DNA from: Catajapyx aquilonaris
Lineage: Eukaryota
Length of the DNA stretch: 64,000 nucleotides
Direction: 5' to 3'
Assembly (NCBI GenBank): GCA_000934665.2
Contig: JYFJ02001098.1
Location: 1 to 64,000, forward strand
The translations under genes and the position numbers were made by a program. The notes below the pieces were generated by a model. It was not told where the DNA came from. It was given only the letters and a program-made list of their open reading frames with translations, and made no database searches. Positions 2,709-39,039 of this stretch are shown here, piece after piece. Within the stretch, counting starts at the first letter, position 1; each line of letters begins with the position of its first letter.

Positions 2709-5700
2709 TCAAGCTACAAGTGCAGGCACCTCCTGGTCATCCTCGTCCATTGCATCAAGAGGCAACAAGGGTACCACCACTCCTCTCTGTGGCTTTCCTC
2801 CGCACACTTTCCCCAGAAGTTGCTGCTGGCATGAGCGGCCTGGTCCGCCTCCCCCGCCAGATCCCTTGTCTTGCTGATTGCCGCTGGTTATTGAAAGCCT
2901 GCCATTGCTGCTTCCTCCAGCTTCTTGCAAGTGCTTCAGCTGCCACAGCCAAACAGTGAAGTGATGAAAATGTTCACAATTATCTCAGTAATGAGGCTGT
3001 GAAGACCTAATATACAGTATATCTCAAAAGCCTGTAGGAACTTACCTGCTTATCAATCGCATTAAATTGCCAACCCCACCGAATGTTGTATAGGAATGGT
3101 CTGTGATCATAGCGATTATCATCTGGACTGTAGGTCTCTGCATGGTACGAGGGTGTTATTACAGTCATCTTATGGCGATTTATGGCGTAGCACCTGAAAA
3201 AAAACTTGACCTTCTCGGCAACCTCTTCAGGGCCCTTGCTGTCCCCCCATTGGTGCATTAGTTTCCCAAACATGGAGTATGGCCCACAGAAACTCTGCTT
3301 CCTCAGCCGCCCGTAACAACTCAGCTCAGCATAAGTCATACCCATGTCCGCCTCATCAGTCTGAGCTACCGTCCCAGCAGCTAGTGGCTCCAGTTCGGCT
3401 GTTGGTTCGGCCCCTAAAATGGCATCCAAGGCTGGAAGGTTGAAGGCACTACGAGCGTACACTAAAAATCGGCGTAAATCCACTTTGGATATACTCCCGA
3501 TGGGGTTCACATCAGCCGAGGAGCAGTCATACTTGGTGACATAACCTCTTAGGCACTCATCCACGTTTGATGAACCCACCACCAGCAGCCCACCAGGACG
3601 GCCCCTCACCCACAGCACCAGCTGGGCAAATAAATATGACAGGACCATGCGAAGGCGAGCCTGAAAAGCAGGAGTTAGACTTTGTACCTACTTATGTACC
3701 TACTTATGCTAAAAGAGTACCTGGATATTTTGTAGGGCAAGATTTTCCCTGGGGCTTCCACCGTGGACTTTGAAACGAGGAACCATCTTAGTCGCAGCTG
3801 TGAATATTCCAATTGTTGCAGCAACGGCAGCATCAATCACAATTGGCATGTGGTAACTGAAATTACATGCCAATTTTCAAGCGTTGTGAGAAATCATAAG
3901 AAAACACTTACTGCAATTAGTAAAAATAGATTCATCATGGTGTACACCAATAAGCCCTAGTTTTAAAAAACTTATTACTTAATTATGAACCATCTGGTTG
4001 TCTTTTATAAAGAACATGAATGGTCCACACACTATACAAAATTATACATGTTTCTGCTTGGTTACGCTTCTCTATTCTTAGAGTGCGAATAAAAAATTCC
4101 ATTAATTGGTTCTTAACTAATTGAATTGTTTTGTGTAATGAGTTGTAATATTAATGCATAATTATTGACCTTCCAATTTGTTCTGCAAGCATCCTTGCCC
4201 TCTCTTTGCTTTCGGATCCAGAATTCTCCGTGCCCATGTAGCATGTCACAAACAGCATGTTGCAGAGTTCTTTTGCTTCCCGAGGAGTGTACGAAGGTAT
4301 GCCCACAATGCGCCTCACATCTTCCAAGACCTCCTCACCTAAGAGGGAATTTTTGCGGAGCAGTCAGATGCATAAAATAAGTGGAAGTAATAACATTAAA
4401 AAATGATGATTCAAGCATAAATATTGTGTACATCAACTATGTGAACTAACTTCCTCTTTGGATGGCTTCAACCACGATCCTGCACATGGAATGCACGATG
4501 CAAGCGGAAGCAGCAGAATCGGCCCCACCGCTCAGAGCAAGGAAGTACCCTCCTTGTCCTGACCTGCGGAGATAATCCCACAACCAGCAGGCAGGTCCCA
4601 TTGCTATTTCCTCCTCAGGAGTGTGGAAAACCCATTCCAATGGAGTCCACGATGGCAAGAAAAAGTCCGAGTCAGTCGAGAGCGAGAAGTCCACGACCAC
4701 ACGTGGGTAAGGCTTTGAATGCGACGCACGGACATCACGTGATCTGAGGCAGTTGCGATATGTTCGGATGTCCTCCAGGTCAATCGTAGCAACAGCCACT
4801 TCCTGTTGGGAATAATGTGTAATAATCAAACATTAATGCGCTCTATACATTTGATGAAGAAGGCAATGCTAACCACTTCTTCCAGAGCAAATTGCTTGGT
4901 GCGGCTCAATATGTGACCATTGATTGCGATACAGGATCCTCCATGATAATAAACCCTGTGGATACATTCAATTAGTGCTGGAAATCAACATTCAAGTGTT
5001 GCAATTACCTCTGTCCATCGCATCCCCTGAGGTTGTTGAAGAGGTAGCATCCACCTGACTTGGCGGTAGCTGATTTCACCATATCCACAGCCACGTAGGC
5101 CTTCCTGAGCTCAGTGTGAGACCCAGATCCATTCAGAATGATCTCGACACCATCCAGCGACATTGGAATGTGTGAGCTCTCAGGATTCCACAGCTCCTCG
5201 CAAATCTCGATTCCAATGCATGTGTCCCGCGTGGACAGTACAGCATCGCCGAAAGGAACCGTCGTCTGGGAGGTCACGGCAGTCACCATACGCGGCAGAA
5301 AATGATCCTCGACTTGCCGGATCTTAACCCAAGCCGTAAACCAGCGAGACTCGCGGTAGTTGAAATCATCGCACATCATCATCTTGGGCCGGATCAGCAG
5401 AATCTTCCTGTGAAATCATCAAATGTAATGGTGTTCACGCAAGGCATACAAACTCACTTGTTGTAGAAGAGTACCCGGCAGTTGTACGCAACATTCTTGT
5501 GCATAACCGGCATACCTACGTCCATCAGTATGTCCTGACATACCGGATTGATCAGGAGCTCAACCAGCACTTCCCATGAATGCAGAAATGTGTCGCTTTC
5601 ATGGAAGTGGTCCTCGCAGCTGTATGAACTGTAATAACAAAAAGTCATTACCAACTGTAATGTACTTGTCAATTTGTTTTTTTTTTTAAATTACCAAATT

Positions 5701-5840: not shown

Positions 5841-6640
5841 GGTACCGGTACGGCTGTACTGTTGCGGAGACACTCAAGAGGAAGAAAAGCACGTGCCAGG
5901 AGACAAGTGGTACCGATCATTGATCGATAAGCGGAGGTGGCGCCTCCACACGGGAGGTGACTGCATGAGGCGCACAGTTTGAACTCGTATGTACACCAGA
6001 CACATTTTTAATTATAATTTTGGTAATTAGCCATTTTAGACAATTAGTTGGTGTAATTACGGAGATCCTATGATTTACAGAAATATACGGTAACATACGT
6101 GCGTCGTTTGTAACCAAATGTTGCGCAATAAATTTTTAATGTTGATTAATTTATTTAATGCATTTTTTTCTTCTTCAAACTAATGAACCAGAAGCTATAT
6201 GAAGTGCGGAGAGGGGATAAACTATATAAAGCACGCCATGGATATCCAGCAAATATCCACAGTGGATATCCATGAGATTTTCCAGGGACATTCGTGCTAC
6301 TTGGGGCGTTTTTCAAATAATATTTTAAAAATCGTCATAAAATATGTCGACTTCACTGCTAATTAAATGTGAAGGTGCAATTTTAAGTGCATGACTAACC
6401 ATTTAAAATGGAAGAAAAAGCACTAAAGATAATTTAGAGAGCACTCATTGCCAGTGCAAAGTGGAGTGTTTTCGTGCATGGCATCGATTGGCCCCTGGAG
6501 TTGCGCGGTAGATAACCAACCTTGTATGCTCTGTCCAGCACAGAAAACTTTAATAAAAAAAGCTCTCTGCACAGGAGATATTCATCTCAAGGGTTTGACC
6601 CCGACTGTACGGTCGTAATAATAAGTGTGTGTACCGCAGA

Positions 6641-7360
6641 ATGTGCTGGAGATCAGACCATAGAGCACGTGTCCTCTGCATCGCCTACATATCCATGGTA
6701 AGTAAAGCCCTCTCCAACAATAGTGCCCGGACATCTGTTGCGCCTACCGCCCAGTTTGAAATGCAACAACTGTGTTGTGTTATTATATGCCTCCTTTCAG
6801 GCAACCGCATTGTTGGGAAGCGGCATTGTTGCTGCAGGATTCACCATATACGCCTACACTCCCAGCACCAAGGAGAAGAGCAAATACAACATCGGAGGAG
6901 GTGACGATCCTCTTCCATCTTATTATACACACACAAAAATTTGGGTGGGGCTGCTCTTATCTGTGCAGGCGTGGCCCAGGCTGTCATTGCAATGATAACA
7001 CAATAACCTCTCATTGTTGCAGTGTTAGAAACAGTGATGCCGACGGCTCTTGCGGTCAACATCATCCATCACGTTGTGTCCATCTCTCTGGCCTGTGGAG
7101 CCCAGCAGGTATTATAATTATGGCCTACACAGCCAGTAGTTTTATTGTTGTAATAACAATTATTGCCATATATATGGTAACCAAACCTGGACAAACTAAC
7201 AAACTTTGCCTTTTATAATAGAGATAGATCACCATGGAAACTGATGGTTGCCATGTTAACCCAATTTGGACAAACAGACTAACAAACTCTGCCTTTTTAT
7301 ACATTTATAATAGAGATAGATCACTATGGAAACTTGTTGCCATCATGTTTACCCAATCCG

Positions 7361-7392
<32 letters not shown>

Positions 7393-7693
7393 TTACTTTG
7401 TATAATAATGGCGAGTATGGTAATAACTTGTATTGTTACTCGGGCTAATTACTTTGCAGGAGAAGCACACCCTTCTGCTGCCTTGGTTGGGGGCCACGGC
7501 CTTGGCCATTGTTGCTGCATTGTTGGGAGTGGCAGGCATGGCCATCAAGGAGTGGTCAGCGCCGTACTGGACGGCACCTCTGGTGCTGTGGGCCGTGCTC
7601 AACGGGTACTTCTGGCACGATGTGCTGCAGTTTTACAAGGGTCTGAGAGAAAGGGCGGACAGGCGGAGGGAATTGCAGACCAGAACAGTCTAA
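6641..7693 (+). CDS. T1: four-TM family protein (divergent), 158 aa
   Basis: Exons 6641-6697, 6801-6900, 7023-7108 (86 nt), 7460-7693, phases 0,1,0. Exon 4 starts EKHTLLLPW. Confidence 0.85.
7179..7410 (-). repeat. ~3 tandem ~90-bp units with (GACA)n microsatellite; Helitron-like end fragments in T1 intron 3
   Basis: The unit ..ggacaaac..taacaaact(c/t)tgcctttt..tataatagagatagatcac(c/t)atggaaact.. recurs, with (GACA)8 at 7361-7392. The reverse strand reads ATCTATCTCTATTATAAAAGGCAAAGTTTG, resembling arthropod Helitron 5' ends (inference). Confidence 0.5.
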
Positions 7694-9814
7694 TTATTTA
7701 ATTCATATTGAAGATGCAATGCTGAATGCTTTTTTTAAAAATTGTACTGGATGTGTTCCAATAATTATGCAATGTTTTAATTGATTGAAATGTGAATTCA
7801 TGCAGCGTGATGTGAGTGTGTCGCTCTTGATTGGGGTCCCCCAAAAAAAAGAAGCGTTGTGCCTTCTACATAATGTGCGTGTTGTAATATTTTGTCACGA
7901 ATGTTTTGCAGCCTCACGCTCAAAAATGGTGACGTGAGTTGGCGCAATAATATTACTTTAAGATTTTATAAGCTTATAACCAAAGATTAGTAATGTGTGG
8001 TAAGTAGGTTTGTTTGGCTTGGAAATAATAATGCTTATTCAGTGAACCAAAGTAGTCAATGATTTTTATTCATATTTTTCAGTCAGTGTAAATTCTTTTA
8101 AGAAAATGTTAATATTTTCTTTGATACAGATGTGCGATACATTCTGAAACATAAGGAAAATTGCAACAACGAGGGAGCATGTGATTCTTGCTGTTTCTCG
8201 TTATCGCTCCTACCTCGATTACAGTCAAGCTGTGACAATGCATGATGATGGAATACGAACAATGTCCACAAGGACAACTTCCTTTCATCCAGTTACATCA
8301 TATCCTCTTCACACTGTGGCATACACCTGTCACAATAGCAGCTGCAAAGAAAATATTAAAATGAAGGAAAATGACCAAGGTTGTTTGTACAATTACCGCT
8401 ACCGATATATTGACTTTATTGTACATAGTGACAATATTACACATTTAACAAATGTCATACAGGAATGATATTACTAACGGATGCCAGAGTAACATACAAT
8501 ACAGTCATAATACTTTTTTTTTTTTGGTGTGTTTCTTAAATGCAACACTTTCCCCAAGCCTAACTGTACTAAAAGTCTGGCATTCAATGCATCCTGAATC
8601 ATTTAAGTACAAGACCTTCAAAAAGATCTCTTTCCATACTTTAAAAAAAAATCCTTATTGTTTCACATTGGCACCACTGGGAATCATGAATAGCAGCAAT
8701 TGAAAACCCTGAAAAGACAGCACCAGTAATTGCCTGCCAATTTTAGGTTACGGCAACTTATGCCAGAGGATGTCCTTTGATACGAATAATTCTTACAAAA
8801 ATTTGTGGATCACAATTTCGTTTTTTTATAACTAATTTATGACCACTGACTAGACCCCATCCACTGACTCTTTATTTTAGTAAGCGGCAGTGCACTGGGT
8901 CATGAAGGTGTCACTATAGGATGACGACTCGGGTGACGTTGATCAGAAGCTGCGGATGCAACCTACATTACTGTACCTGTAGAATTAACTGTTTAAACAG
9001 CGTTTAATGTGCACACAAGTAAAGCTGCATCCAAGATCGTACACATGGTAAAATTCAGATCTCTAAACTGATTTTAAAAATTATAAGCTGGCCCAATAAC
9101 ATTGGTATGAACTTAAAATCTAATCTAGAGCACGTTGCAATGTAAGTGCGGCACAGATTCCTAATTCTATAGCACAGCCTCGACCTGCTAGCACTACGCT
9201 AGCTAGCTCCATAGTGAAAGCCTATCCCCACCTACGTGAACAACATGTGACGTATTGGCAACTACCCATTTCTTCATAACCTCTGGTTAAATGTTGCTGC
9301 ACCTTTTATGGGCAGGATATTTGAAAAAAAGCTAGTAGTACAAAAACAATTGTTTCAAAGGACGTATCGTGTCCAAATTTGTTCCTCACTTGTTCCAAGG
9401 GTTACAGTCTCCGTAACAGTCTTCCCCAAACACTTTCACAAAAGGGTTTATGACTTGAATTGTAATCCATCCCTAAATAATGTTGGAATTTAGTTCCACT
9501 TGTATTCGCAGCTCTTATGCGGCCATAAATTAACATGAACGATATGCAGCTGCTGTCACAATGACATGTGGAGCAACTTGGCGGATGTCAGACAGCTAGG
9601 AAAAGGAAGATATTCCGAACCATTGCATTCCTTGCGATCCTTTCGCTTTTTGCTGCTATCATCAATCCTTCCAGGAATATCAATATATCCGGATCGTTTG
9701 ATATTTTATTAAACCTAAAATGGAACTGAACCCCAATTTTGTGCATATTTTGTCAGGAGATGGACAGTCTCCAAACCCTACCACCACTTTCTCCGCATTA
9801 TTTCAGTCCTCATT

Positions 9815-11090
9815 TTACACCCTGTCATTCCAGACCTCATCTTCTCGCTTCTGTTCTTGCCTGAGAGCCCATGTCCTCCAGTCCTGTTTGCATGCCACGT
9901 ACAGCCGAAGGGAAGAAGCGGCCAGGAAAGCCACATTGCAACCTAGCACCACGTTTAGGAAGTAACCAGTCGTGGGATTGACATCCGCCGAGGCCAAATA
10001 CAAGCATACGGAAACCGCAATTAAAACAAATGTGCAGGTTACTTGATACAGCATGCTTTCCAGCCCAGAACTTCGGCGTCTCTGAAAATTAGGAATTCAG
10101 TCACGTCACTTCCAATTTACAGACTGATTAGGAAAGAACCTGAACATTCCTAGAAACGTACCGCTAGACTCTGCATCTCTTCAGCATCGGTTTTTGGGTC
10201 TCCTTGTAGTACATCTTGCCTACGAAGAGCCTTCAGTTTGCGGTAAAGTCTGGCCAGACGCATTATGAGGGTGAGGACTATGGCTGTGGACCATGAAAAT
10301 AGGGTCCAGTGGAACATGGACGAAAGTGTCTCCACAACTGGGAAGCAGTTCAGTACAAATGCATCGTAGATCACCACCAGGAACAAACCATGCCATCGGA
10401 CGTTACGACGCTATTAGGTGAAAAATTCAATGTAAAATTTTTGTGAACGACACTGGATTCCTGCAACCAACCTTGTAGGTTTCCATCAGCTTCTCCGATC
10501 CATAGAATGCGAGGCAAAAGACCAGCATAACAATGAAGACTTGCAGCACTGGAAATGGCATTACCATTACACATTTTTCATCTTAAAAAATTATGCTGTA
10601 ACAACATACATTCAAAGTCGAACTCTCCATCCTCCAAGTCGCTGTTGTTGTTGAAATATCCTGGGCCCAGTTCCAGCATAAGCCCGCTGATTCCCAGTAA
10701 CGCAAAACACTGAAAGATGATTACATTACCTTTTTCATTCCGTTGCTAATAAGCGGGTTAACTTACAAAGCATGTGACGACAGTCCACAAGTCGCCGGGG
10801 TATGGATCGTTTGCGATGGTCCTGTCGCTAATCTCCTCTTCAACCGGTATGGGCTTCGTCTTCTTCCAGTCGTCCACATAGTTGCGGGTAGCCTCAGCCG
10901 ACTTTTTGACGGACGCTGCGAACCACACTAAAATCAGATCGACCCGTGACCTCGGATTCGTTTCTGTCTTTCCATCGTCCCTCGTCACGTTGGTCACATT
11001 AGGGTTCAACAAGCACGCATTTTCTTCCGGCGCTGGTGCCGGACTCTCATTTTCTGGCGGAGATTGCGGCTCGGTTTGCTGAGCCTCCAT
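9815..11090 (-). CDS. L1: extended ~6-TM member of the family, 5 coding exons, 338 aa
   Basis: Exons 11090-10767, 10709-10610 (100 nt), 10548-10472 (77 nt), 10410-10162, 10081-9815; GT-AG, phases 0,1,0,0, 1017 nt in frame. It has a long acidic/Pro-rich N-terminus. A probable 5'UTR exon donor lies near 11470. Confidence 0.8.
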
Positions 11091-12229
11091 TGCTGCCTCA
11101 GTACCTGCAACGCACACCAAATTCATTACAATTTCTATACACTTTTATGACCAGCGGTGACGTCAATTTCCATACAAAGGTGGCATGTTCATTGCATTTG
11201 TCAACGTAAAGAAAATGCTACGTACACATAAGGTACACAATTACTTACATTGCAACAAGTACACTGTGCATGAGCATAAATTAATGGTAAGTGTTCCAAG
11301 GTCGAATAGTAAACAAACACTGTTGTGTACTTACTTGGTACCTACCATCTACATATCTTAAAAATTACAGCAAGTACTTGCACCTGCCAACTACTTAACC
11401 CAGACGGAGTAATTGGCGCTAATGAATGTGTTTTTTATCGCAATAATCGCAGGAGATAAAGTGAACTTACTTGTGTTCCTTTCTGTAGGAGGAAAATGGC
11501 TCTGTGGCCTTCAAACTGCGCATGCGTCAAAAGTCTGTACGTATCAAGCGGCCATTTTGAGTCCGACATTTTGGATCCTGAAAAGAGCGGCTGGTTTGAA
11601 TGCGAAAATTGTCGTTACAGCCTTTTTTTGCTTTTCTTTCAGAATCTAAGGGTTTTCTTTAAATGATTTTAGCACGGATATTAAGGTTCATTACACGCGC
11701 CGAATACTGTACAACTAAGTGCTGGGAATAAGCGAATTTGCTTGGGTGACTTTTCTTGCTCTTTCCCCAAGGTTAATGCCTTCAGTTCACGTCATTTGTG
11801 ACGCGGGTATAGTCGGCAAATTTTTTATACCTCACTTGGCTCTCATCGTCCTTTCCGAAGGCCGCTGAAGAGACAAATAACAGGGACGCCAGACTAATGT
11901 TTGTAAATATAATTGTGTTGTAGCATATGATTCCATTTGGATTTGAGCCTGTCATGAAAAGCGAAAGTGTTACGTTAAAAATCACGGTGCCTGGGTTTTT
12001 CCCTATGCAACGAATCAAATCATTTTACTGAGAATTTCACGGACTCCAATTCACTCGAAAAACAGTTGCATAATATTGTGTGGCATATAAGGACAGCAAG
12101 TTGCAATATGGATACGTGCGTAATTTCTCGGGTTCATATCTACGAGTGATTTGTATACAAATGCAAATAATGAGACAATTTGCAGATTATATACGTACAT
12201 AATATGCAATTTTCTCATTCTCAGACGAT

Positions 12230-12275
12230 TAGGCTACATTTTTGGGTATTACGTAATACCCAAAAATGTAGCCTA
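12230..12275. repeat. Perfect 46-bp palindrome with no spacer
   Basis: taggctacatttttgggtattac|gtaatacccaaaaatgtagccta. Confidence 0.95.
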
Positions 12276-13533
12276 TGTGGCCCATTCAGTTAGTTTAGTT
12301 TAGTGTTTGTTTAGTTTTTGTTTAATACAACCGGCCCTATAATTTTTGAAAGTAAAGTACTGCAAGAAAGTACGGAAGCGCGTACTGGTATAGGGCTATC
12401 CTATGCAAGACTGCATGGTGCCGATAAATAAACAAGAGCGATAGACAATACAGTCACGCAGCTAGGCGAGCTAGGCCAACAACCTATAGATAAAATAAGC
12501 TGGAGATAAGGCGGGCTATATAAGACAGGCTTCGTGACAATATAATTTCAACCGCACATCAGTATATGACAGTATACGCATGGATTTGTGAAATCTGGGG
12601 ATCACATGCGTACGTGCTAAATAACACGGCCGGGCAATTTTAAATGGAAATTGTTTACACTGTTTACACATGAGTACGTGTGCGTAAACACACGTGACGT
12701 CAGACCCCCGGGATCCCGTCTCGGGCTTGGGCTCCAATCGGGGGGATTCCCCTTGGCCACGACCAGGCTTGGAAGGGAAACCCCGCCTCTGTTCTCTTTG
12801 AACCTATACACCAAAAGAGCCTGACAAACTAGTATTTTCCTCACACAGTTTGAATGTACTCTGAAGTCCTGTGGTCAAGAAAAGTCTGTGCGGAGGTAAG
12901 TGAAGGAACATTAATGTTTGAAGGGTTTGACAGTCATGGGTTTATTTTGCGATCAGCTCCTGTACAGGCCTACACACCGTACTAATAAGTGATAATACAT
13001 AGCCACGCCAGGCTCTATAGACTCCTGATTTGCAATTTACTTCTAAAGTACTCCATATGTAGACTACTACATAAATGAAAAGGAAATAATAGTGTCGACA
13101 ATATTATTAGTATACCGTAATCATTATTTATTGTTCGGTGTTTTCCTTTTCTTGAGTCGTCTGTACGGTTCAGCGATTGTGACATTTTCTGCGAATATTT
13201 TCCGGTTGGGATTGTCAATATGTTGTAATTTTACAACTGATGTTGTAATATTACAACGTCTAGTAATATACGTCATAGCATATGTCATAGCGGTTTTTAC
13301 AAGGCCACATTCGCGGAAGAAGGTGTAGAAAACTGCAATTTTCAACTTTGACGTCATTGCAATTAGTAAACGCCAGAAGGTTTACGAAGTGCTCTAAATT
13401 AGAACTGGCAAAAGACAAGCATTGTTCGCTGTACTATATAGTACGGACACTTACTTCATGACGTTACTGCAATTGCTTGACTTACATTCTAAGACGGCCC
13501 CCTCTTATATTTTTCTTTCTTGCAGAGCCCAAT

Positions 13534-16500
13534 ATGAAGCTCTTAAGGCTGACCCTAAGTGACCTCAAGGCAAAAGCAGTCTCCATCGTCGATGATAGTG
13601 ATGAAGAGGAATGTGCAGAGATGACCTTCGACCGAACGACCGGATTGAGCGTGGCGCCTCTTCTGAAAGCGGATCCGAACAAAGTGGCCCTCTATGTCAC
13701 AGGTCAGCCAGGTCACAGCTGGCTCCTACTCTGCCAGATCAATCTAATTCCCCGGATTTTTCCGGACGCCAGCAAGAGGCTGCTCATTTGGACCTCTGGA
13801 TCCAGAGCGTGCACGTTATGCAGGACCATCGTTTTGTCTGTAAGTATTCGTTACATATATTAATTAGGCCGACTGGTACATGCATTAAATTGATTAAACA
13901 ATAGTGAATGATACTAATATCAAAAGTATTTTATTAGAAAAGTGTTATATTAATAATAAGTTAGTACATGATAGCAATTGCTTGGATTGCCGGGTTTATT
14001 GCGTACATTGATGTAGGCGGTACCGCATCGGCCTTGAACAATATCCTCATCACTGATGGCTCATAAAATTTTCCTGTTTTTTCACACAGTGAGGGACAAT
14101 ATTATTTAATGTTATCGGCTTATTGACTGCTCACACACACAAATGTTAGGGCACAAAGGAATAGCTTTGGGTCATCCACTGGTGGATTATAAAACGATTT
14201 TATGATTGAAAACCTGATATTTCTTCAGTGTATAATTATGACAAGTGCATTGCAAGTCAAAGGTGTATAATGAGAGAAAATAAAAATAGAGTTAGCAAAC
14301 ATTTGCTCAGTCTGGCGAAATAATGATTTTAATTTGATTTTGTTAAATGCGATGCTAAATTTACTGGTAACGGGGATATAGTAATACGACTTCAATGATA
14401 TCAAGTTTTATTACATTCACCGGGGAAAAAAAGATTGGAGATCAATCTAGTTTGAACAGGATGACGAGTATGTAACCATTTGAAAGGGGAATTAGTGGCC
14501 TTTGTTCAGGTGTGGACTTTCCTTCAAAGAACCTCTCTGAATTTGCTCTGTCATTGGATTTTACACCAATAAAATGATGCACGGGTATGTCTTTTGAAAT
14601 GCAGCAAGTCATTCCTCAGTGTATATGACTTGAATACTTCAAGTAATGCCAATCTGCCATCGCATATATTAAAAGGTAGGCCTATATCAGACAATAAGAA
14701 TGAGACGATTTTGAATTTAATTTAAAAAATCATAAATCGTTTTAATAATATTTTTGCTACAGTATAGGCTTACCGGCACTGACAACTGACATCACTGATT
14801 CAACTAGGGAATGGTCATAAAATTATGACTGCCAACAATGAAGCTAACGTAATATTTATTAAAGGCTCGCGAGAATAATACGTGGATTAAAGTATGTTGC
14901 AAATAAGAACAATTAGAATAATTAAATCGGGCTTTCTAGAGAGTTTCAATTATTATTTCTCTGTTGTCCACACCTTCGTCGGGTCCTGAGAATTTTATTT
15001 TGTTTACGGCAATATTTAATTTCTGAGTGTCTCTTTCGAAGGTTATATATTGTGATTTACAATACTTTTATTGCTTATATGAACGTAATTGACTATGGTG
15101 GCCCTCTTTGAATAGAGCATACATTATATTTTGATGATGATCATATAGCCTGTCTCTCCGTGTTGGTGGAATATTGGGAAAGATCAATTGCGTAAATCGC
15201 TCTATCAAGTTCGCCGCTCTGTACTTATCACTTAGCGGAATACTATCTCTTCCTTTTCTCTTTTCCTGCTGGGATTTCCTTGTGGGGACCACAGCTAGGT
15301 TATCCAAAATGTGTTTCGGCGCAATCCAATGTGGTGAAACATGTGCCATATATACAACACAGTACATAGACAGTACAATGATTAGAATTTAGGTCAGCAT
15401 GTAAATAAAAGGCTTCAATTCTTACCACTATAGTGTTGCAATCTATAGGCTACAGTAGCTACACAACTGCTAAAATCCGCAGTAGTACAGATCAGAAGAT
15501 ATTTCATTGATATATTCTGTGTCAAGTTAGTAGTCATGCACATATTGAGTGAATAAAATGAGCTGCTGTAGCATACATAATTAATCAGGTACTTTTTTCA
15601 GGTGGTGTCAGCTTTCCTCGTTTTCCTGAGCACGATGATCCTGTTCTACTGGAAAGCTGTGTCTGATGTCCTGGCTACAGATTTTCAAATGTTCGAGACC
15701 TCGGGTATGGCTGCAACATTTTAGCAAATTTCGTCACCTGAAAGTTACATTGTTGCACTGCAGGCCACTGCACACACAAAGATGGTGGAAAAGTCTCGGA
15801 TTCTCCTTTAGAATTTCTAAGATTGCTCTAATTTTCGGAGATACCGGTAAATTGCAGAGTGACTTTATGATATATGCCACTTGTATGAATGTTAGAGCAC
15901 CAAAGTTTGTTGCAATAATAGTCGTATATTCTGCAGAATGATCCTTATTCACATGGGTGAAAAATTCAACATAGGAAAAACTGGTATCGTAAGTGTTTGC
16001 TAACTTTCAAGTGACGATTTTAACTGATTATAAGTTACGAGATAAAGGTCATGCAATGACATTGCCCCCTCGTCTGATCAAAATGTCAATTAAAAAATAT
16101 TTCTGACCTTTTCCTGCAGGTTTGCACATCTTCGTTGTGGTAATTTTATGCTATGGAACCATCACATTTTTCATATGCTGGGTGCAACTCTACCAGCGAC
16201 AAAAGGTGAGGAAAATATCCCTTAAAAATATATTTTCAAGCAATTAATGATTGTGTGTCACATTTCAGCAGGGAATGGAAGATTCCAAATGGATCGCTAC
16301 TTTAACGTTTGTGTCCGAGTACTTAGCAATGGGAAGTGCCCTAGTTTTACTAGGGATCCACAAGCCATCGACACTGGCCTTGTTCGTCCCTTGGTTTCTT
16401 CCTATCGCGACACACGGCGCCATTGTTCTGTACGACTCATTGTTAAACGCACAGGAAAAAGACAGTGACTTATCTCTCATAGTAGAGGTGAGTGTGTGGC

Positions 16501-16985
16501 ACATTGGTGTCGTTTATATCTTTTTCACCGCAATATATGATACGCATGAAGTTTTTTCCTGACATAAAAATATTTGCAGCCATTGCATAAAATTTGTTTC
16601 GAATTTTCAGAGAGTGCAGCAGACGGCAAAGCGGGACATATGGATGCTTTTGTCGGACACACTCTTCCTGGGGACAGCCGTCGTTATGAGTCTGTTGCCT
16701 GGTTTTAGCTTAGGACTGGGCTTTACTATTGTGATAGCCAACTGCTTGCTTCTAGTTTACTTCCTCCTTTGGGCGCAACTCCATTTATATCTGATGACAA
16801 AGGAAGTTAAGTGTGTCAGTGTGGTGTGTGACTCGTCGGACTTGACATCTACTCAGATGCTAAAAGTGATGCCAATGGCACAGGAGTTGATAACTGACTC
16901 CAGAGATTTTTATGCTGTCTTTGCTAGTTGGCTAGTATCGAAAGGGCTAGCCAAATCAGCCCCTCACACGCCACTTAATCAGTAA
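13534..16985 (+). CDS. L2: extended ~6-TM member, 5 coding exons, 362 aa
   Basis: Exons 13534-13839, 15602-15704 (103 nt), 16120-16205 (86 nt), 16269-16487, 16611-16985; phases 0,1,0,0, 1089 nt in frame. Confidence 0.8.
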
Positions 16986-17280
16986 ATGACAGCCCCTAAT
17001 GAAGATTGGTGCCAATTCGCATTTAACAAATGTTACATACATATTTCGCATATATCGTGATAAAATGAACAGTTCGCCTGCTAAATATCGCATATTGACA
17101 AAATATGATGTGATCATAATAATAATTGCATCCAATGTTTGTGACGTTTGGTGCAACGCATCGCAAGTGAATATGACTATTTCATAACGCTGTAACTTTA
17201 TTATAATAAATTTGTATTGTATTATTATATATTAAATCATTCATAAATAATCAGCTGCCTTCAGTTCATGTCTATTCCAT

Positions 17281-17400
17281 TTATGTACTGTATATTCACT
17301 GAATGTACTGTATATTCACTGAATGTACTGTATATTCACTGAATGTACTGTATATTCACTGAATGTACTGTCTATTCAATGAATGTACTGTATATTCACT
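17281..17400. repeat. Minisatellite, 6 x 20 bp (gaatgtactgtatattcact)
   Basis: Six head-to-tail copies are directly visible; the fifth carries two substitutions. Confidence 0.95.
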
Positions 17401-17825
17401 TTATGCCCTCCATGAAGTTCAATGATACTAGAAATCGAACCGTGTTTACACCGTCCAGCAACCCATAGGACCCCTCCCCCATCATCCAAAATTAAAAGCT
17501 TGCAGGTCATGCGACTTTTTTTTTGTAACCACGTAACGGGTCTCCCGCCTCAATAAATACACCTGACTCAATAGCATGAAACGCGAGACACATGGCCCCC
17601 CTTGACAACAACAGTAAATAGTGCGCATGTATTATAGTCCTCATACTGTGGATAGATGTAAGCTGTGATCCAGCTGCATCCAGGCCAGAGAGTTGGGGGA
17701 GAATCAATAGACTGTAGGCATCCCGGATGAGAGAGATATAGGAGAGGGGGTGTGTGCACTGCTGGTGGGACAATCAGAAGGAAAGGAGAGGCCAGTGCTT
17801 GCAGGTGTGTGTCTGCCCCGGGGCC

Positions 17826-20432
17826 ATGGAGCTCCGGGCCACGTCTGGTAGGGGGTCGGACCTAGGGGCGGTGTTGGCCTCGGGTCGAAGCTCCAAGATG
17901 GATCTGGCTGGCTCTCAACTGGATAAGAACCATGAGCCCAGACCCTCAGTGTTCATCCTCTGCTTCGTGCTGGTGAGACTTTTGCAAACTAAATTATACT
18001 GCTGGATTTTCCATTTGGCTGAGAGCTGGATCGTTTCGCATGTTCCTTTTGCAGATCCCAAGGGTGTTCCTTATAGGCTGCTTGGCTTATTGGTTAGCTG
18101 TTCTCTCTGAAAAAGAACGGTCTGGAATTCCCTCGGAGCTCCTGGGCGCCATTAAAGGTAATGGAAAGGCTGTTCTCGTGGGGAGTTGAATTACCACACT
18201 CGGACATGGCATGTTAAATGCCGACAACTACCATTTGGCCTCGCTTCTTGATAAAACCCAATTACTGTGCGAGGGGAAAGTGAATGAGACTGCTGCTGTT
18301 CAAAATCTGTTTGGAGATTTAGCTACTTGGTTACTAGTCAGTTGTGGAGACGATTTTGATACAAACTGGCAGTAAAAAATTTGCTTGGTTACTCTTTAAG
18401 GCATCTTAGGAGAAATAAAATATAAGAAAGGTTTGCAACTAAAAGTGTGTTCATATATAAGCTCGTGAAAATAGACCGTGCTAAAGTGTCTCAAATTGGC
18501 TCAAAGACAAGTCCTACAGAATTTATGAACATACCTTTACATAACCAAAAGAGCTGAATTAATAAACAGCTTGGTTAACTGTGGCCACATCTTCAATTTT
18601 GAAAGAAAAAATTACTACAGTGGAAAAATGTGTTATTCATTCTAGTAGTTTGCGGGCAGCCAACATCCGCATTTAAATATTAATTAACTTCTTGCACTAT
18701 AAACCAGCGTTTTAATGACTCCATGATGAAGTTCGCTGGACTGCAAGCTTTTTATGGCCTAGCACGGAGGATAAGCAAATAAGCAAAGCTTGAGAGCCCT
18801 ATACAGATATTTCAATTGAATTTTTATAACCTCACAAATCATACTATAGGCCTAGTATTGTTTATATTCAATATCTGCAAATAAGAAAATCTGAGGTGTC
18901 ATTACATCAAGTGGCACACAATCATGATAATTATAGCTGAAAGAAAATGGCTTATTATGCACATTAGGTCGAATCATTTGCGTATGGTACATACATACTT
19001 TTAAAACAATGCACTGAATAAAAATGTGCAGACAACTTTGTTGACAGAATTTTTTCCAGTCTTTCAGGTCATCCTGGGCACGACAATGGCACTCCAAGTG
19101 GCAGTTTTTGTACTGGTGTGCTTGGATTTTATCGCCGAAAGCAGGGTAATTACCCAGCCCATTAATTCGATTCCAAGAATGTGCATGTGCTGTGAAAATA
19201 ACTCTAGAAATCTCTTTGAACGTAATTCACCAGCAGACGACTTTGATTGATCCACCTTTCGTGCTCTTCAATCACGTACACCTCCTCAATGTTTTAAGGG
19301 TTGGGAGGGTGGGGGGAGAAGCCTCAATCGTGCATGGGATCCGATAACAAATCAATAGTATTGCTTGAAGCATGAAATGCCTGTGACTATAGTACTGACA
19401 TGACCAACTTTTTAATTATTGTTCATTATCCTGATTGTGCAGGGGAAGCGAAAATGCATCCTGCCTTGGGTACTGGTCACATCGTTGAACATAGGCAACA
19501 ATGTCCTGTTCGTCGTGGCCCTAACAGCACACGGTGTCCAAACACACGTGACCGTCCCTCTCTTCCTGGGCGACATCCTGGATGACCTGGGTGCCCTGGT
19601 CATGTTCCTCCATTCCTGCGCAGGAAGCAAGGATCAAGGACCTATCAACCGCCGAAGAGCGCTCAAGGTTCAACATTTACGACAATTTTGACTCGAATAA
19701 TCCTTCTTCCTGAATGTTTGTCCGACCTGATAGTACCACTATCACCCGCACGACTTGAGAGTGGCAGGAATGTGCATGGGAAGTGTGCGCCATCTAGTAG
19801 TGGAGAATAGTACTACTGTAGATGGTAAATCGGCCTCCAGCGAGGTACTATCAGGTCGGACAAACATCCGCTAGAGATATCGTATTTATTCCTCCGTCTC
19901 TATGTGACTGTGAGGAATATGGGAGTACGTGGACACTCTTGGAAGTTTTGTTATGTAATGTTTGCATTGTTGTCATCAGAGCCTGCAGCTGTCCCTCCTG
20001 ACTGCCATAAGCGCCAAAGCCCTGGCCATTCTCCTGTATCTGGCTGCTTTGGTGATATGCCTGGCAGCCTGGTTCCACGTCCTGGTGGCGCTGCCCTTCC
20101 TGGCTTACTACATCTTCGTGAATGCCCTGGTGGTGACCCGGTTCTGCTCCATGTACCTGTCCGCGGCTCAGGAGGCTGCGGACGCCCGAGACGCCGCAGA
20201 CGCCTGGATGGCCCGGGTGGCGTGGGATGAGTCCGACGCCCAGGGGCTTCCCATGCCTCTTTCCTCAGAGTGTCTCAGCCACTACTGCCAGAGTGTGGAC
20301 TATGCCGATTACATGCATGATGTGGTGGATCCGGATGAGGTGGTCCATGATGAGGATATGGAGGTGGTCGAGGAAGAGGTCATTCCGTCCGGGGTCAAGG
20401 CCCTGGCACACTGCGGGGGTCATCCAGTTTGA
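17826..20432 (+). CDS. L3: extended ~6-TM member, 5 coding exons, 337 aa, acidic C-tail
   Basis: Exons 17826-17972, 18055-18157 (103 nt), 19060-19145 (86 nt), 19443-19667, 19980-20432; phases 0,1,0,0. Exon 4 begins GKRKCILPW, matching the family xKxxLLLPW motif. Confidence 0.82.
19714..19867. repeat. 24-bp perfect inverted repeat (MITE-like hairpin) in L3 intron 4
   Basis: atgtttgtccgacctgatagtacc (19714-19737) and ggtactatcaggtcggacaaacat (19844-19867) are exact reverse complements. Confidence 0.85.
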
Positions 20433-21674
20433 TCCCGACATGTACTCGACGCAACCAGTACCTGCAACTTTTGTACTGGCTCAGAGTCGCTACGGTGTTG
20501 CAAAAATGTTTTGTTCCGGCTATGAAACGGCTATTTGCCAGCAAAAAAAAAACATTAAAAAAATATTATAATGAAAAAATGGGATCATGAATTATACTGG
20601 ACATTCGTAGACATTCACAATTTCTAGAAACCAGTATGAAGATGTTTCATTTTAGCCTTTCAATTTGCTAAAATTGGCCAAATTACGTATAGGCAGTTTT
20701 TAAATTAATGTTACAAGTAATGGATTCAGCAGCATGCATAATTAGGTGTTTGAACTGAGTGGTTTGCCTTTTCACAGCCGCATGATTTTTTTGCAAGACC
20801 AACACGTCTGTGAGGCTAGTGCAAATATTTGCAGGGAGAAGACCTGCGTAATGGTTGGGGGGGAGGGGAAAATGCTGTTGTCAAATTTATTAAAATAAGA
20901 GTAGGACCACTTAATGGCTCATTTGTTGACTTTTTCATATCGAATTTTGCGATACGTTTCTATCGGATAGGTGTATGGTGACGATTTGTATGCTCAAAAT
21001 TAATAAGCTAAGAATAATGGGACGTGCGTTAAAAATGGCGGCGGTAAGATGACACTACTATGTACCAAATGAAAGAGGGGTCTTGCTCACTATCCACGTT
21101 GTTGATTTTTCTAATGTCAATCCCAACCGTTTAGGTCAAGTGGTGACGAGTACAAAGGCAATTTTCTTATTCCGACAACATTGTTCAAAGTTGTGTAATA
21201 ATAATAATAATAGAGCTGTTTGTTTGTGAGATACACATGAAAACATGTTTTTCGTTTCAGTCGAGTTACATAAACATTCTGATTTATTATCTCTTGAGAC
21301 TGTCCTTATTTTTCCTAATTCGAGTTACATTTCAGGTTACATAAAATATGTTACTACAATACAAATTTCAAGAGTATGTAAATTAATTTGTGCAATTGCG
21401 TGAAGAGCCCACAAAAGAAAAGCCACATTTTCATAAAGTTTATAGGCTACACACGAAAGTAATAATAAATTTCGTATCGCAGTCGTAGCCTATAATGCTC
21501 ATGTTTCTATGCGGTGAAGTTATTTTTGAGGCATATAGCTTACATAGGATAACGGTAGCGGATGTTTAACGGACGCCGTACACAGGAAGTTAGACAGATA
21601 AGCAAGGTTGAACACCCAACAGTCGAGCACTCATACTTGGTAGAGTTATACATTAGTGGTCAGAGGTTGCAAAA

Positions 21675-22909
21675 ATGCCTCAAAAAGATGTGAACGAAAG
21701 CTGCTGCCAAGTGTGTGCACGCATCTCAGCATGGTTGGCAGCAACTCTGTCCATGGTAAGCATTGTTGCCCCCAGAGCAATATTTCAATATTGTTGAGAG
21801 TTGACAATAACACACAAAAAAATGTACGCAGGTGACTGGCATTGTTGGATGCGGAACATTGGGATTCCTTGTATTTCTCTACTCGTCTGGCCCTAAAGGA
21901 CCCATTTTTGGAATCAGCGTGTTAGGTATGAAAGGACCCTATAATTTTTTAGAGTCTATCAAGTTATACGTTTAATGCATATAAATACTTTTAAAAAACA
22001 CCGTTTCTCAGCGTATATTTGCAGCCAGGAAACTGTTTTTATACAAGTAGAAAAGGCCTGGAAAAGAAATTATAAAACTGAGAATACGCATGAAATTTTG
22101 CAAAAAAAAAAAAAATGCAGCGAAAAATTTGTAATCAGCTAAGATATAACAAATAGCCCACACCAGCAGGCAATTTTGCAATTGAAATATATTTCCTCAA
22201 AGCAATTAGACCAAATTACCATCACGCGACGTCAGTAGGTTCATCTTCCTACAGGGAAAAAATGTCTAATAATATTGCATAAAGAGTAATGCTATTTTTT
22301 TTCCCTGTCCTCGACTCTTTGAAGGCAACATATAGTCACATGATAATGACCTTTTCTCCTACCATTAATATGCAGCTCAATTGAACCCTATTTTAGTCAT
22401 GCAGATTGGATTGGCTATTTGCGTCCCGATCAATATCATTCACATCATCATAACAGCCCTACTCATTCACGCACTTCGAAAGGTAAGACACGCTCGCTAA
22501 TGATTAACGCCATGTGCGTGCATATATTATACTTGGGAAGTCTCTATAGTAGCCCAACTTGTACATATTTCGTTTCATATAGCCAATTCAGAATAATATT
22601 TCACGTTATATAAAAAATTAAAAGTAAAATAAATCATTGCCCTTAATTGCTTTATCACATAAGATATCAAACCCATTACAGAAGAAGCACATGCTGATGC
22701 TGCCCTGGATCTTTGGCTGCGGCATCTTGACCCTTGCCCTCTGCGGTTTTTCCGTCTACTACGGCTATCAGACGTATTTGACGACTATAGTGGTCCTAAT
22801 CCCAGCATCCATCTGCCTTCTCCACCTCTTGGAATTGGTCGTAATCGTAGTCCGATTCCGACATTTGTCCCTGATCGATCGAGACCGACTGTACGATCAA
22901 TGGGACTAA
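21675..22909 (+). CDS. T2: four-TM family protein, 162 aa
   Basis: Exons 21675-21755 (MPQKDVNESCCQVC..), 21832-21925, 22397-22482 (86 nt), 22682-22909 (KKHMLMLPW). Confidence 0.88.
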
Positions 22910-23149
22910 TGTAACAAAAAAAAGGTCATCCGACCAATAATAATAAAAAAATCGCATTAAAACGCATCTGCATTGTAGAGAGGTTATATCTTCCGCCAGT
23001 GAACGACGAAGGCCGGCACTTTGCAGGGTGTGACGTAACTTGGCAAAAGGGGTTGGGGGTGACTGCTGGGTGGTGGGGGTACGTATAGTAGCAAAGGAGG
23101 GAAAGGGGGGGGGGGTGAATTCTATTCAATGATTTCAGTCCGGTGCAGC

Positions 23150-24836
23150 ATGGCGGGGAAGAAGGTTTGCGACGACAGAGAGACCTGGTCGTCGTGGGAC
23201 ACTGCTGTCGGTGCCACCATCGTCGCAGTCTTTTCATTGGTATACACATTGAAATTACTCGTGCATTTTTTAAAATATAGAGGCGGTTTGCTCATTGATT
23301 AGTCCGTTTCAGGTTCAATCTGCGTTGGGAGTGGTGCTGAGTGTGTTGGGGATCCTGTACCTGCAGTTACTTGCGGAAGAGAGGCATTTCTACCTGGATC
23401 ACAAATGTACGTTGATAGGATTTCCTCATGTGGAGCGTCAGCAAATTGGCCTTTTAATTACTCATCATTTTTAACGGGAAGTTAAGTGCTAATGCTAGTT
23501 GCAGACCGGTGTCTTCATCAACCCTTTTAAAATGCTAACAACTAATGATGGTTAAGTGCCAGAAAACACCGTTTCTCCAACCTTGTTAACGAGCCGTTAA
23601 CAAAAGTGCTAACGACCGTTTGGGGCCATGACTGTACACTGTACACCATTTTTACAAACCGTTAGCATCTGACTGCAGTTAGACTAACTTCAGTTACTTG
23701 TTAATCGACAGTTAAGGACTAACGGACAGTATGTTATGTCTTAACGGAGCTTTCAGGACTAACGTATTATTAAAAGCGCTATTACTTTGCCAATCTTTTA
23801 CCAGATCAGTAGTTAAGTTAACGTGATTATAAACTACAGTTAGCTACTGGCATATCTTTTTAAAAAACTTGCAGAAACCGGAATGTGTCGTTAGCTTTTA
23901 ACAGCTTGTTAAACGTTCTACAACATCAGAACAATTATGAAATTTGACTGTCGTTAGATATTAACCTGCAGTTAATAGCCTGGAAAAAATCCGAGCATAT
24001 CGCCAGTTGCATCAACTCAAATTAATGGAGAAATATTCGATTACGTACATGTGATATTATACGTACCCAGAAATATTAGCTAATTTGCTTCCACACAATC
24101 CGCCCTTAGATCCGGTTACATCGCTGGTAATAAGTTATGCATGCGGCTAGTTTCGTCTTGTTACAAATCAGCGGCAACAATGAAACAATTAACATTTTAA
24201 TAGTACTGCCAGCTGTGCAACCGTCGCTTAATTTTTGTCATACAGGCTGTTAACGACCCGTTACAAATGCTTGGAGAAATTATTTTTTGCAACAACGACC
24301 CTCGATGTGGTTTTGCGGTTGATGCAATACCATCTTCCCCATTTATATTTAAACTCTATTTAAAGACTACTGCTTTATCTACTCAAGCAAAAGTGACGTC
24401 ACTCGCAAATTTTCCTCAATAATTTTCGCTCTAAAGTTACGTCACCACATTCGTGCTAGACAAGCAGGGGAAATTTTGACCTTATCAATGCTGGTCTTTC
24501 CAACAATGTAATATGCTTTTTTAAATTATGTCCACAGTGGTGCCAATCCTCCTGTACGTGTATGCTGGTTCCAATGTTGTGTTCATGGTCGGATCATGTC
24601 TTCTCCTGGCTGGGATACGACACGAGGTCCGTTGGCTTGTGGTCAGCTGGCTTATGACATCCCTGGTGCTGACCATGGCCCACGTGGCAGGGATGGTTCT
24701 GGTCATCTTCTTCCGCCTATGGGACCCTTTCCTGCTGTCGATTCCTCCTGGGTTGGCAGCCCTTGACGTCCTTTTCTCCGCCGTCGTGTGTCTTCACCTC
24801 CGTCGGATGCCAGCTGTCTCCTACGACACAATTTGA
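23150..24836 (+). CDS. T3: four-TM family protein, 160 aa, lacks intron 3
   Basis: Exons 23150-23239, 23313-23406, 24538-24836 (exons 3 and 4 fused: LLLAGIRH-EVRWLVVSW). Confidence 0.85.
23460..24275. mobile_element. Probable non-autonomous DNA-transposon insertion in T3 intron 2, rich in GTTAAC/TAAC/GTTA motifs
   Basis: Dense recurrence of ttaac, gttaac, gttag and ctaac words over ~800 bp, and the intron is 1.1 kb versus about 60-70 nt in many paralogs. The ends are not resolved. Confidence 0.4.
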
Positions 24837-37466: not shown

Positions 37467-39039
37467 CCGAAAGGATGAGCAAAAATTCTGCCATTTTGTC
37501 GGAAAGATGTAATATTTACCTTCTTGCTGGGTGTTTTGTGTGCTGGCTTATGATGTAGCTACATTTTTTCAGATTGCCCTTAAAACCAGCTCTTGGTGTA
37601 GATCTACATTGATTGTTCTCATATGTCGCAGCTATACCATGCCTTTGGATAGAAGTCATTTAATATTATTCCTAGTAGTGCTAGAGGTACGCCAAAATGC
37701 GGCAAATCGTGATAAAAGCAAGCCACTTTGCAGAATTGTAGTTTATACCAAAATATGCGATTTTGCCTGTGGCGCCATGTTTTTCGTCCATTAGGACCCA
37801 AGGTGGCGGTCGGTTTTCCAAAAAAAAAACTAGCCTTAAGTTGAAAGAAGAACGACACAGCCGGAACTACCACATCCGTGTCAGGACAAGTACAAGTATA
37901 GGTTTACAACCATTGTTGGCCATGTCATTGACATGAACAATGATTCGCCCATCAGATTCTTCTCTGCCTCCGTAAGAAATGCCTTCCATACTAGTACTGC
38001 AACCGGGATTGCATTGAACGACATCACTGACAATAAAACCATCCTGATTTAACATGGAAACGCGAGGGCATGATTCAAATTGAAGCAAAAATCACTCAAA
38101 ATATTTTAGAGCGCGAGATTAGATTAGCAGGCAAATACCCGAGGTAAATATCATATACAACGCAATAGGACTGGATGAAACTGGCCATTAATTTTAAAAC
38201 TGCTGCTAATGAAACGCTGTAAGATATCTTTCCCAACGAGAAAACACTTTTCCATTGCAAAGTACAAAAGTTCTGGATTCAATCTTCTCACCACGACATT
38301 ATCATCTTCTCTTCACCAGAATGCTAATTATTTTACGTCACATTATTATAAATATCACTCTGGCTGTGCGTACAAGGAGTAGTCTGCTGGAAACGAACGG
38401 TACCGACTCTTATTACGAATGTAACATGTGTGTAACTATTATGTACAGTACATAGCATTATCTGTGATGTCTGTTAAACCGTGACCTGTTTTTTTTGTCT
38501 TCTGGAGATTCATGTGTCGTTTTTGTGCACGTTGTTGTCACTATAATGCACATGCGGGTATTTGTGACTTAGAAAAAGAAATCTTCTCGTTTTAGAGTAA
38601 TTTAGAAGCGAGAATGATTTCGTGTCGTTATTTAAGACGTCGTTATGTAACATGACATCGACAAGCTCATATTTGTTTGGATGATAATTATCTGACAATC
38701 TTAAGCTATACTTCGTGTTCATTATCGAAAAAAAACATTGCGTATAACCAAAATGTGCAGGAATGTAATGAAGGAGACTGAGTTTATAATGTCAACACGT
38801 TCGAAATAAATTAATTTTTGCACTTGCAGTAATTTAATAGGTGTTTTCTATTATATCCTTACCACACTTCAGTTTGCAATAAAACTGAATGATTTTTTCA
38901 ATATCGACAGGTCTATATACATTTGTGGATACAAGTGGACACTAAATAATTTTAATAATAAAGGCAAGGGGATAACCACTTCCGTATACTCCAGTGTACA
39001 CCTGTAGTGATGGTACTCCCAGGTACTCCCAAATCTTTC

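Follow-up and report, generated by a model that had tools for sequence, protein, structure and literature searches.

Three candidate six-helix relatives within a pasiflora-like tetraspan gene array of Catajapyx aquilonaris

Introduction

A stretch of 64,000 nucleotides (nt) from Catajapyx aquilonaris (assembly GCA_000934665.2, contig JYFJ02001098.1, positions 1-64,000 of the forward strand; the window in what follows) contains three genes, L1, L2 and L3, that lie within a tandem array of genes for four-helix membrane proteins, the T genes. The window has about 40% G+C and is animal-type DNA carrying spliced genes. An initial annotation had proposed that L1, L2 and L3 are disguised derivatives of the T genes, in which a fifth exon, a duplicate of the fourth, had converted a protein with four transmembrane (TM) helices into one with six. 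The three genes, verified in part by transcripts, are best interpreted as a new variant, with six helices, of an already known tetraspan family.

Results

Gene models were rebuilt from the raw sequence, with open frames and canonical GT..AG introns as requirements. L1 lies on the minus strand (9815-11090), L2 and L3 on the plus strand (13534-16985 and 17826-20432). Each has five coding exons separated by GT-AG introns in phases 0, 1, 0 and 0; exon 2 is 100, 103 and 103 nt long in L1, L2 and L3 respectively, and exon 3 is 77, 86 and 86 nt. The predicted products are of 338, 362 and 337 amino acids (aa), and each shows six hydropathy peaks (Kyte-Doolittle, 19-residue window, threshold at least 1.45): the first spans intron 1, the second is in exon 3, and exons 4 and 5 contribute two each. 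The exon number, phases and lengths given in the initial annotation were all reproduced, as were its products of 337-362 aa with six hydrophobic segments. Its description of the genes as the T plan with a longer N-terminus and an extra exon for a further hairpin also agrees with these models, the exon lengths and phases being those of the T genes.

The coding part of L1 exon 1 (324 nt, 10767-11090) encodes the beginning of helix 1, preceded by an N-terminal extension of 103 aa; its peptide has no Pfam match at E ≤ 1. Exon 2 (100 nt, phase 0, 10610-10709) supplies the remainder of helix 1 and an acidic outer loop and has the length of exon 2 in T7 and T31, exon 3 (77 nt, starting in phase 1, 10472-10548) carries helix 2 and has the length of T27 exon 3, and exon 4 (249 nt, phase 0, 10162-10410) encodes helices 3 and 4, with a tryptophan at residue 6. 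Exon 5 (9815-10081; 264 nt of coding sequence and the stop codon at 9815-9817), which has an AG acceptor and an open frame, gives helices 5 and 6 (peaks at aa 264-282 and 294-312) and a 26-aa tail. Just upstream of the start codon there is an AG acceptor, which hints at a non-coding 5′ exon of L1.

In L2 the coding part of exon 1 (306 nt, 13534-13839) encodes a 98-aa N-terminal extension and the start of helix 1, and its peptide matched neither a Pfam family nor a PDB sequence. Exon 2 (103 nt, 15602-15704) is an open frame bounded by transcript joints (see below). Helix 2 is encoded by exon 3 (86 nt, starting in phase 1, 16120-16205), the length found in 13 of the 16 T genes, and helices 3 and 4 by exon 4 (219 nt, 16269-16487), which has a tryptophan at residue 8 and an internal GIHK...FVPW. 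Exon 5 (375 nt, 16611-16985, of which 372 nt are coding and the rest is the stop codon) encodes helices 5 and 6 and a 71-aa tail. L1 and L2 stand head to head, 2.4 kb apart (11090-13534), and the gap may hold a shared bidirectional control region.

L3 begins with a start codon in good context. The coding part of exon 1 (147 nt, 17826-17972) encodes a 41-aa N-terminus and the start of helix 1, and its border matches T intron 1. Exon 2 (103 nt, 18055-18157) is given by the gene model and by the alignment to a T profile. For exon 3 (86 nt, starting in phase 1, 19060-19145; helix 2) the reading frame is preserved by use of the acceptor at 19060. Exon 4 (225 nt, 19443-19667; helices 3 and 4) opens with GKRKCILPW, which includes the PW motif of the family; the KRKCILPW that the initial annotation had seen retained here is present at 19446-19469 and occurs only once in the six frames of the window. 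Exon 5 (453 nt, 19980-20432, of which 450 nt are coding, plus stop), predicted from its open frame and phase-0 AG acceptor, encodes helices 5 and 6 and a 97-aa acidic tail.

The models were compared with the contigs of two sequencing runs. Run X5, a public run from the same organism, contains about one fifth of the words sampled from the window, and its contigs were aligned on positions 6400-25000. Run X1 is DNA and served as the unspliced comparison. In L1 the X5 contigs are joined at 10081|10162, 10410|10472, 10548|10610 and 10709|10767, which are exactly the four predicted introns, and in L2 at 13839|15602, 15704|16120, 16205|16269 and 16487|16611, which are the four predicted introns after the stated shifts of the cuts. 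The skipped segments are bounded by GT..AG ends, or by CT..AC for the minus-strand L1. The introns predicted for the adjacent T22 and T24 are also skipped, and the joints 23239|23313 and 23406|24538 confirm the two-intron structure of T24. None of the L1 or L2 joints is present in the X1 contigs, which are unspliced across all these sites. As the X5 contigs skip the predicted introns and X1 is unspliced, X5, the run type of which is not recorded, is inferred to be RNA-derived, and exon 5 is joined to exon 4 in both L1 (10081|10162) and L2 (16487|16611). The X5 contig of L1 extends to 11085 at the 5′ side and continues to 8413 at the other, giving a 3′ untranslated region of 1.4 kb; that of L2 begins at 13524 and extends to 17192. 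L1, L2 and L3 are read as real protein-coding genes, with splicing observed for L1 and L2 and the model of L3 a prediction. Between the end of the L2 transcript contig and the start of L3 lies a tandem repeat (17283-17400; 20-nt unit, 5.9 copies, 95% matches).

Sixteen T genes (T7 to T60) were modelled in the window, all on the plus strand with canonical splice sites and encoding proteins of 158-209 aa. They occupy 6641-7693 and 21675-61224, and the L genes are placed between T7 and T22. Their plan consists of an exon 1 of 57-90 nt, an exon 2 of 94-133 nt, a short exon 3 and a terminal exon carrying helices 3 and 4. Exon 3 is 86 nt long in 13 of the 16 and 77 nt in T27; in T24 (24538-24836) and T47 (47754-48073) intron 3 has been lost and exons 3 and 4 are fused. 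Exon 2 is of 100 nt in T7 and T31 and of 103 nt in T27, all three being among the five T genes closest to the L genes. These five (T7, T22, T24, T27 and T31) make up a divergent subgroup marked by PW or SW at helix 3: PW opens TM3 in T7, T22, T27 and T31 only, T24 has SW, and in the other T genes the proline precedes F, Y, P, M or C.

Pfam and protein libraries were searched with single exon peptides, not spliced proteins, as queries. Of the 10 T last-exon peptides submitted, 8 matched DUF4728 at E ≤ 0.04, with one attaining the gathering score. The T translations also carry the motifs of the family, for example LLLPW and SHYQEL or SQYQEL (SHYQ or SQYQ in the distal T genes). On this Pfam match and these motifs the T genes are assigned to the pasiflora (DUF4728) tetraspans. 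The traits of that family, as described in PMC4582180, are four helices, cytosolic ends, PW at the start of TM3 and VxSQYQ, or a shortened VxS, at the boundary of TM4 and the C-terminal tail; the same text places orthologues in arthropods, molluscs, echinoderms and hemichordates and counts core septate-junction proteins among the members. The Ikebana preprint ties DUF4728 and Mtp to the pasiflora tetraspans and LAPTM4A/B, with both termini in the cytosol (N-in/C-in).

All three L genes follow the intron plan of the array (phases 0, 1, 0; exon 3 of 86 or 77 nt; intron 1 within helix 1), a plan that defines the array and not the Pfam family. For L3 there is also a clear sequence relationship. 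When a profile of the 16 T proteins is applied to its exons 1-4, the score is 20.1 bits, a value reached by 1 of 1000 decoys (sequences preserving local hydropathy; 1000 per profile test unless stated), and for exon 4 alone the T exon-4 profile gives 15.3 bits, which none of 1000 decoys reached (hhalign probability 77%). With hhalign, L3 matched the T proteins with a probability of 84%, against 0.3% for the reversed sequence, and all three borders between its exons 1-4 share columns with T introns in the profile alignment. That L3 is a relative of the T family, collinear with it over helices 1-4, is well supported by these comparisons. The descent from a four-helix family claimed for all three genes thus stands for L3 on sequence, and for L1 and L2, which give no sequence signal, it is suggested by gene structure, position in the array and one positional tryptophan. 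Intron 1 of L1 and L2 is in phase 0 and inside helix 1, as in the T genes. The exon 4 tryptophan is at residue 6 in L1 (RW), 8 in L2 (KW) and 9 in L3 (ILPW at residues 6-9), compared with PW at residues 8-9 in T7, T22, T27 and T31; the preceding proline is present in L3 and absent in L1 and L2. L2 has another PW, at the start of helix 4. The chance that exon lengths and phases match in this way is, by a rough estimate and not from a computed null, well under 1 in 1000 per gene.

Sequence divergence within the array itself is considerable. In BLASTP comparisons among the T proteins, 41 of 120 pairs gave no match at E ≤ 0.01, the median identity was 20%, and of the pairs made up of a proximal and a distal T protein 33 of 55 were undetectable. 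As about one third of true T-T pairs escape detection, silence between the L genes is no evidence against kinship.

The origin of exon 5 was then considered. Its product in each L gene is a pair of hydrophobic helices followed by a tail of 26-97 aa. Upstream of it, 18-28 residues past helix 4, there is a phase-0 donor. Reading on into intron 4 would meet a stop codon after 3 (L1), 24 (L2) or 7 (L3) codons, which places the donor at roughly the point where a T gene terminates. Intron 4 is 80, 123 and 312 nt long in L1, L2 and L3. In L3, 154 nt of it are the span of an inverted repeat (19714-19867) with perfect 24-nt arms 106 nt apart, and in the bin 19441-20061 the summed DNA contig depth is about 300, compared with about 30 elsewhere. 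The element looks like a miniature inverted-repeat transposable element (MITE) present in many genomic copies.

The initial annotation had taken exon 5 for a duplicate of exon 4, and this found no significant support in four tests. Against a profile of all T exon 4 peptides, the comparison by which the duplication was to be checked, exon 5 of L1, L2 and L3 stayed within the decoy range (569, 569 and 153 of 1000 decoys as good). Against a profile of the nearest T genes, with L3 exon 4 added, the counts were 483, 82 and 77 of 1000 (59 of 1000 for the summed score). When exons 4 and 5 of the same gene were compared by Smith-Waterman alignment with 500 decoys, 409, 259 and 440 decoys did as well in L1, L2 and L3. 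With hhalign the best of the three, L3 exon 5, reached 4.6% against T exon 4 (0.3% when reversed). It aligns without gaps over 54 residues to positions 96-149 of the T profile, ending in S-x-Y where the T proteins have S-H-Y, and the score is 2.0 bits.

The topology of the L proteins was predicted from hydropathy and charge alone. The two inner loops, after helices 2 and 4, contain 5 and 9 lysine and arginine residues in L1, 3 and 4 in L2 and 4 and 6 in L3; in the three outer loops the numbers are 0, 0 and 0 (L1), 1, 1 and 0 (L2) and 3, 0 and 0 (L3). This distribution fits a six-pass protein with both termini in the cytosol, the orientation reported for the family, and departs from the four-helix trait of pasiflora in the number of peaks. 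An even number of helices would have been added, so both ends would stay cytosolic. No enzyme or transporter signature was found in the L proteins. Pasiflora1/2 are core components of septate junctions and the related LAPTM4 proteins are endolysosomal adaptors; by analogy with the family, the L proteins would most likely be small non-enzymatic membrane scaffolds or adaptors, with the new tails recruiting cytosolic partners.

Similarity searches left the L genes as orphans, as had been foreseen. Pfam returned no family for any of the L exons at E ≤ 1. When 5.8 billion clusters were searched by word index, neither L3 exon 5 nor L2 exon 5 found a match among longer proteins. An alignment of 15 sequences (T exon 4 peptides and L3 exon 4) found no match among proteins of at least 218 aa, a size range that excludes the ordinary family members of 160-180 aa. 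In the PDB, sequence searches with exon 1 of L2 and exon 5 of L3 yielded no match below E 0.19, and scans of metagenome contigs for relatives of L3 exon 5 and of T27 exon 4 confirmed none. With these single-exon queries no named family was returned in any search. The libraries evidently lack the spliced proteins of this animal, so the missing relatives are weak evidence of lineage restriction; the L genes appear to be lineage-restricted. In the literature on DUF4728 and on pasiflora plus LAPTM4, no six-helix member was reported within the reach of a thin full-text search, which had subscription journals outside it.

Two sets of hits were obtained with L2 exon 5 and set aside. A HMMER scan of 1.84 billion representatives gave two matches at E ≤ 0.001, both to long unrelated proteins, one with fibronectin type III and C-type lectin domains and the other a weak phage or RecD-like match, and these were judged to be due to chance. 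In the ESM Atlas the best score was 0.85, to unnamed bacterial clusters and under the trust level of the tool.

Elsewhere in the window, near-identical open frames at 32519-32927 and 38213-38455, among the closely related T34, T37 and T41, suggest a recent segmental duplication of T units together with intergenic DNA. Intron 3 of T7 (7228-7445) contains a duplicated segment and a (GACA)8 microsatellite (7361-7392); the DNA depth is about three times the local value and reads are apparently cut at 7353-7401. At 3007-5415 on the minus strand are exons of a gene of the glutamine-dependent NAD synthetase type, two exon open reading frames of which matched Pfam NAD_synthase (E 3e-15) and CN_hydrolase (E 4e-16).

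Discussion

The explanation that is considered probable is that the L genes arose inside the tandem array of pasiflora-like (DUF4728, LAPTM4-related) tetraspan genes, kept its plan and gained an N-terminus and a terminal exon. The array plan would have been retained with intron 1 (phase 0) cutting helix 1, intron 2 (phase 1) just before helix 2 and intron 3 (phase 0) just after helix 2, ahead of the W or PW that opens helix 3. Exon 1 would have been extended at its 5′ end to give the cytosolic N-terminus of 41-103 aa. The old terminal exon would have become internal, with a phase-0 donor after helix 4 taking the place of the stop codon, and this donor would be spliced to a new terminal exon for a two-helix hairpin and a tail. 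The outcome would be a tetraspan core carrying new cytosolic tails, in a protein of six passes and N-in/C-in orientation. Most likely there was a single such event, followed by tandem duplication, in which one copy was inverted, and by fast divergence.

A number of observations weigh against this derivation. L1 and L2 are matched or beaten by 906 and 919 of 1000 decoys against the T profile and by 501 and 140 of 1000 when the profile is built from L3 and the nearest T genes, and their hhalign probabilities against the T proteins (about 1-2%) are no better than those of reversed controls. The L genes had been said to share little visible identity and indeed do: the best pairwise BLASTP match among them has an E of 0.27, and exon-by-exon Smith-Waterman scores fall inside the decoy range, so that the common descent of the three has to be argued from structure. 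The VxSQYQ expected after helix 4 is absent in all three, which have ARLYRK (L1), IVLYDS (L2) and FLHSCA (L3). Eight L exon peptides, submitted singly, gave no DUF4728 (PF15860) or Mtp match at E ≤ 1, with the caveat that even true T last exons mostly fall just below the PF15860 gathering score. The odds of a chance match in exon length are, as stated, estimated and not computed, and the best local alignment of L2 with a T protein, discussed below, is shifted by one helix with respect to the exon-based register. L3 has almost no cover and no spliced joint listed in X5, which is one small run, and its exon 4-5 splice is a prediction. No L orthologue was found in the libraries searched.

The absence of a signal for L1 and L2 against any T profile or L3, and of a Pfam match, would be explained if these two were an unrelated orphan six-helix family within the array, with coincidental exon sizes and phases, L3 being the only true T derivative. 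This is considered unlikely. Chance would have to account for an intron 1 in phase 0 inside helix 1 and for lengths of exon 2 (100 or 103 nt) and exon 3 (77 or 86 nt) that are exactly those of the flanking T genes; moreover, both genes are situated between T7 and T22 and have a tryptophan among the opening 6-8 residues of exon 4, and a third of true T-T pairs are equally undetectable. A different register would follow from the best local alignment of L2 with T27 (score 53), in which L2 aa 188-219 (LLGIHK...FVPW, in exon 4) falls on the TM2-TM3 junction (LLRG[IV]RK...LL[VL]PW), with T31 aligning likewise. The T-like core of L2 would then be helices 2-5, one helix having been gained at each end and no C-terminal hairpin. 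The score was reached by none of 200 decoys at first and by 65 of 3000 when more were used, uncorrected for 16 comparisons, after which it is not significant. This arrangement is regarded as very unlikely: the lengths and phases of exons 2 and 3, which match exactly, are left out of account, a profile of the motif alone gave no match in L2 (288 of 1000 decoys as good), and one helix added at each end would place the core upside down in the membrane relative to the T proteins. A short profile built on the HG-RK...LLPW junction was without power for all three L proteins. The junction-like stretch of L2 could be due to chance or could be a trace of a more complex rearrangement. As for L3, the near absence of X5 cover and of a spliced joint, the stop codon 7 codons past the exon 4 donor and the repeated inverted-repeat element in intron 4 are what would be expected of a gene that is silent or decaying, or that makes a four-helix, T-like protein of about 194 aa by way of 7 codons of intron 4. 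Against this stand five open exons with canonical splice sites, the good start context and an exon 5 that keeps an open frame of 150 codons with two strong hydrophobic helices, and a gap in the cover of one small run says little; that L3 is not a working six-helix gene is accordingly held to be improbable, if somewhat less so than the shifted register.

Derivation from the array leaves room for a refinement regarding the source of exon 5, which may tentatively be seen as a captured copy of the terminal exon of the family (helices 3 and 4). The acceptor of the T terminal exon and L intron 4 are both in phase 0, a fit that makes capture of the terminal exon of a neighbour mechanically easy, so the refinement is kept open. 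Exon 5 is exactly one two-helix hairpin and a tail, like T exon 4, and the gapless 54-residue alignment of L3 (though of 2.0 bits), its hhalign value (4.6% against 0.3%) and the weak trend against the nearest T genes (L2 82, L3 77, sum 59 per 1000) point the same way. No test was significant, however (569, 569 and 153 per 1000; L1 483 per 1000; 409, 259 and 440 per 500), no L gene has PW opening helix 5, and intron 4 is short and so holds no relic of exons 1-3 of a skipped gene. The route itself, though it has less than an even chance by some distance, might have been read-through splicing between array neighbours: with the stop codon lost, the two-helix terminal exon of the next member would have been captured phase 0 to phase 0, extending the pasiflora fold by a repeat of helices 3-4, and the product would have been duplicated and have diverged into three expressed genes. 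If this were true, nature would have supplied a clear-cut instance of a membrane protein enlarged through exon capture inside an array.

PMC4582180 describes the pasiflora/LAPTM4-like family as strictly four-helix, and the L genes, as six-helix descendants identified by their intron blueprint, would extend it. They point to a route by which a tetraspan core can acquire a hairpin and cytosolic tails, its terminal exon being made internal, and offer a worked case in which the homology signal is carried by gene structure and not by sequence. The practical value is modest: the mechanism of the family is understood no differently, and the genes are seemingly confined to their lineage.

Among known systems, LAPTM4A and LAPTM4B are small multi-pass proteins whose cytosolic tails could carry sorting or adaptor functions, and the C-terminal tails of LAPTM4 and LAPTM5 carry PY motifs; no PPxY-type motif was seen by eye in the L1-L3 translations. 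LAPTM5 is a vertebrate-specific, five-helix relative of LAPTM4, and helix number is therefore variable in the wider family. It is set apart from the L proteins, going by its general description, by an odd helix number and a different gene structure. LAPTM4A and LAPTM4B have four helices and the L proteins six, and no L or T exon peptide matched Mtp (PF03821), the Pfam family of LAPTM4A/B, at E ≤ 1; according to the Ikebana preprint, LAPTM4A/B belong to the same wider family as pasiflora.

The closest system is the pasiflora family itself (Drosophila Pasiflora1/2, Fire exit and CG15098/Ikebana; DUF4728, PF15860). The L proteins differ from it in their predicted helix number (six against four), in their extensions of 41-103 aa at the N-terminus and tails of up to 97 aa at the C-terminus, in lacking VxSQYQ after helix 4 and a Pfam match and, for L1 and L2, in having W instead of PW. 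The T neighbours are members of the family, L3 is collinear with them over helices 1-4 and keeps the PW, all three L genes share the intron positions and phases of the T array, and an N-in/C-in orientation is predicted for both, for the L proteins from hydropathy and charge and for the family in the published descriptions.

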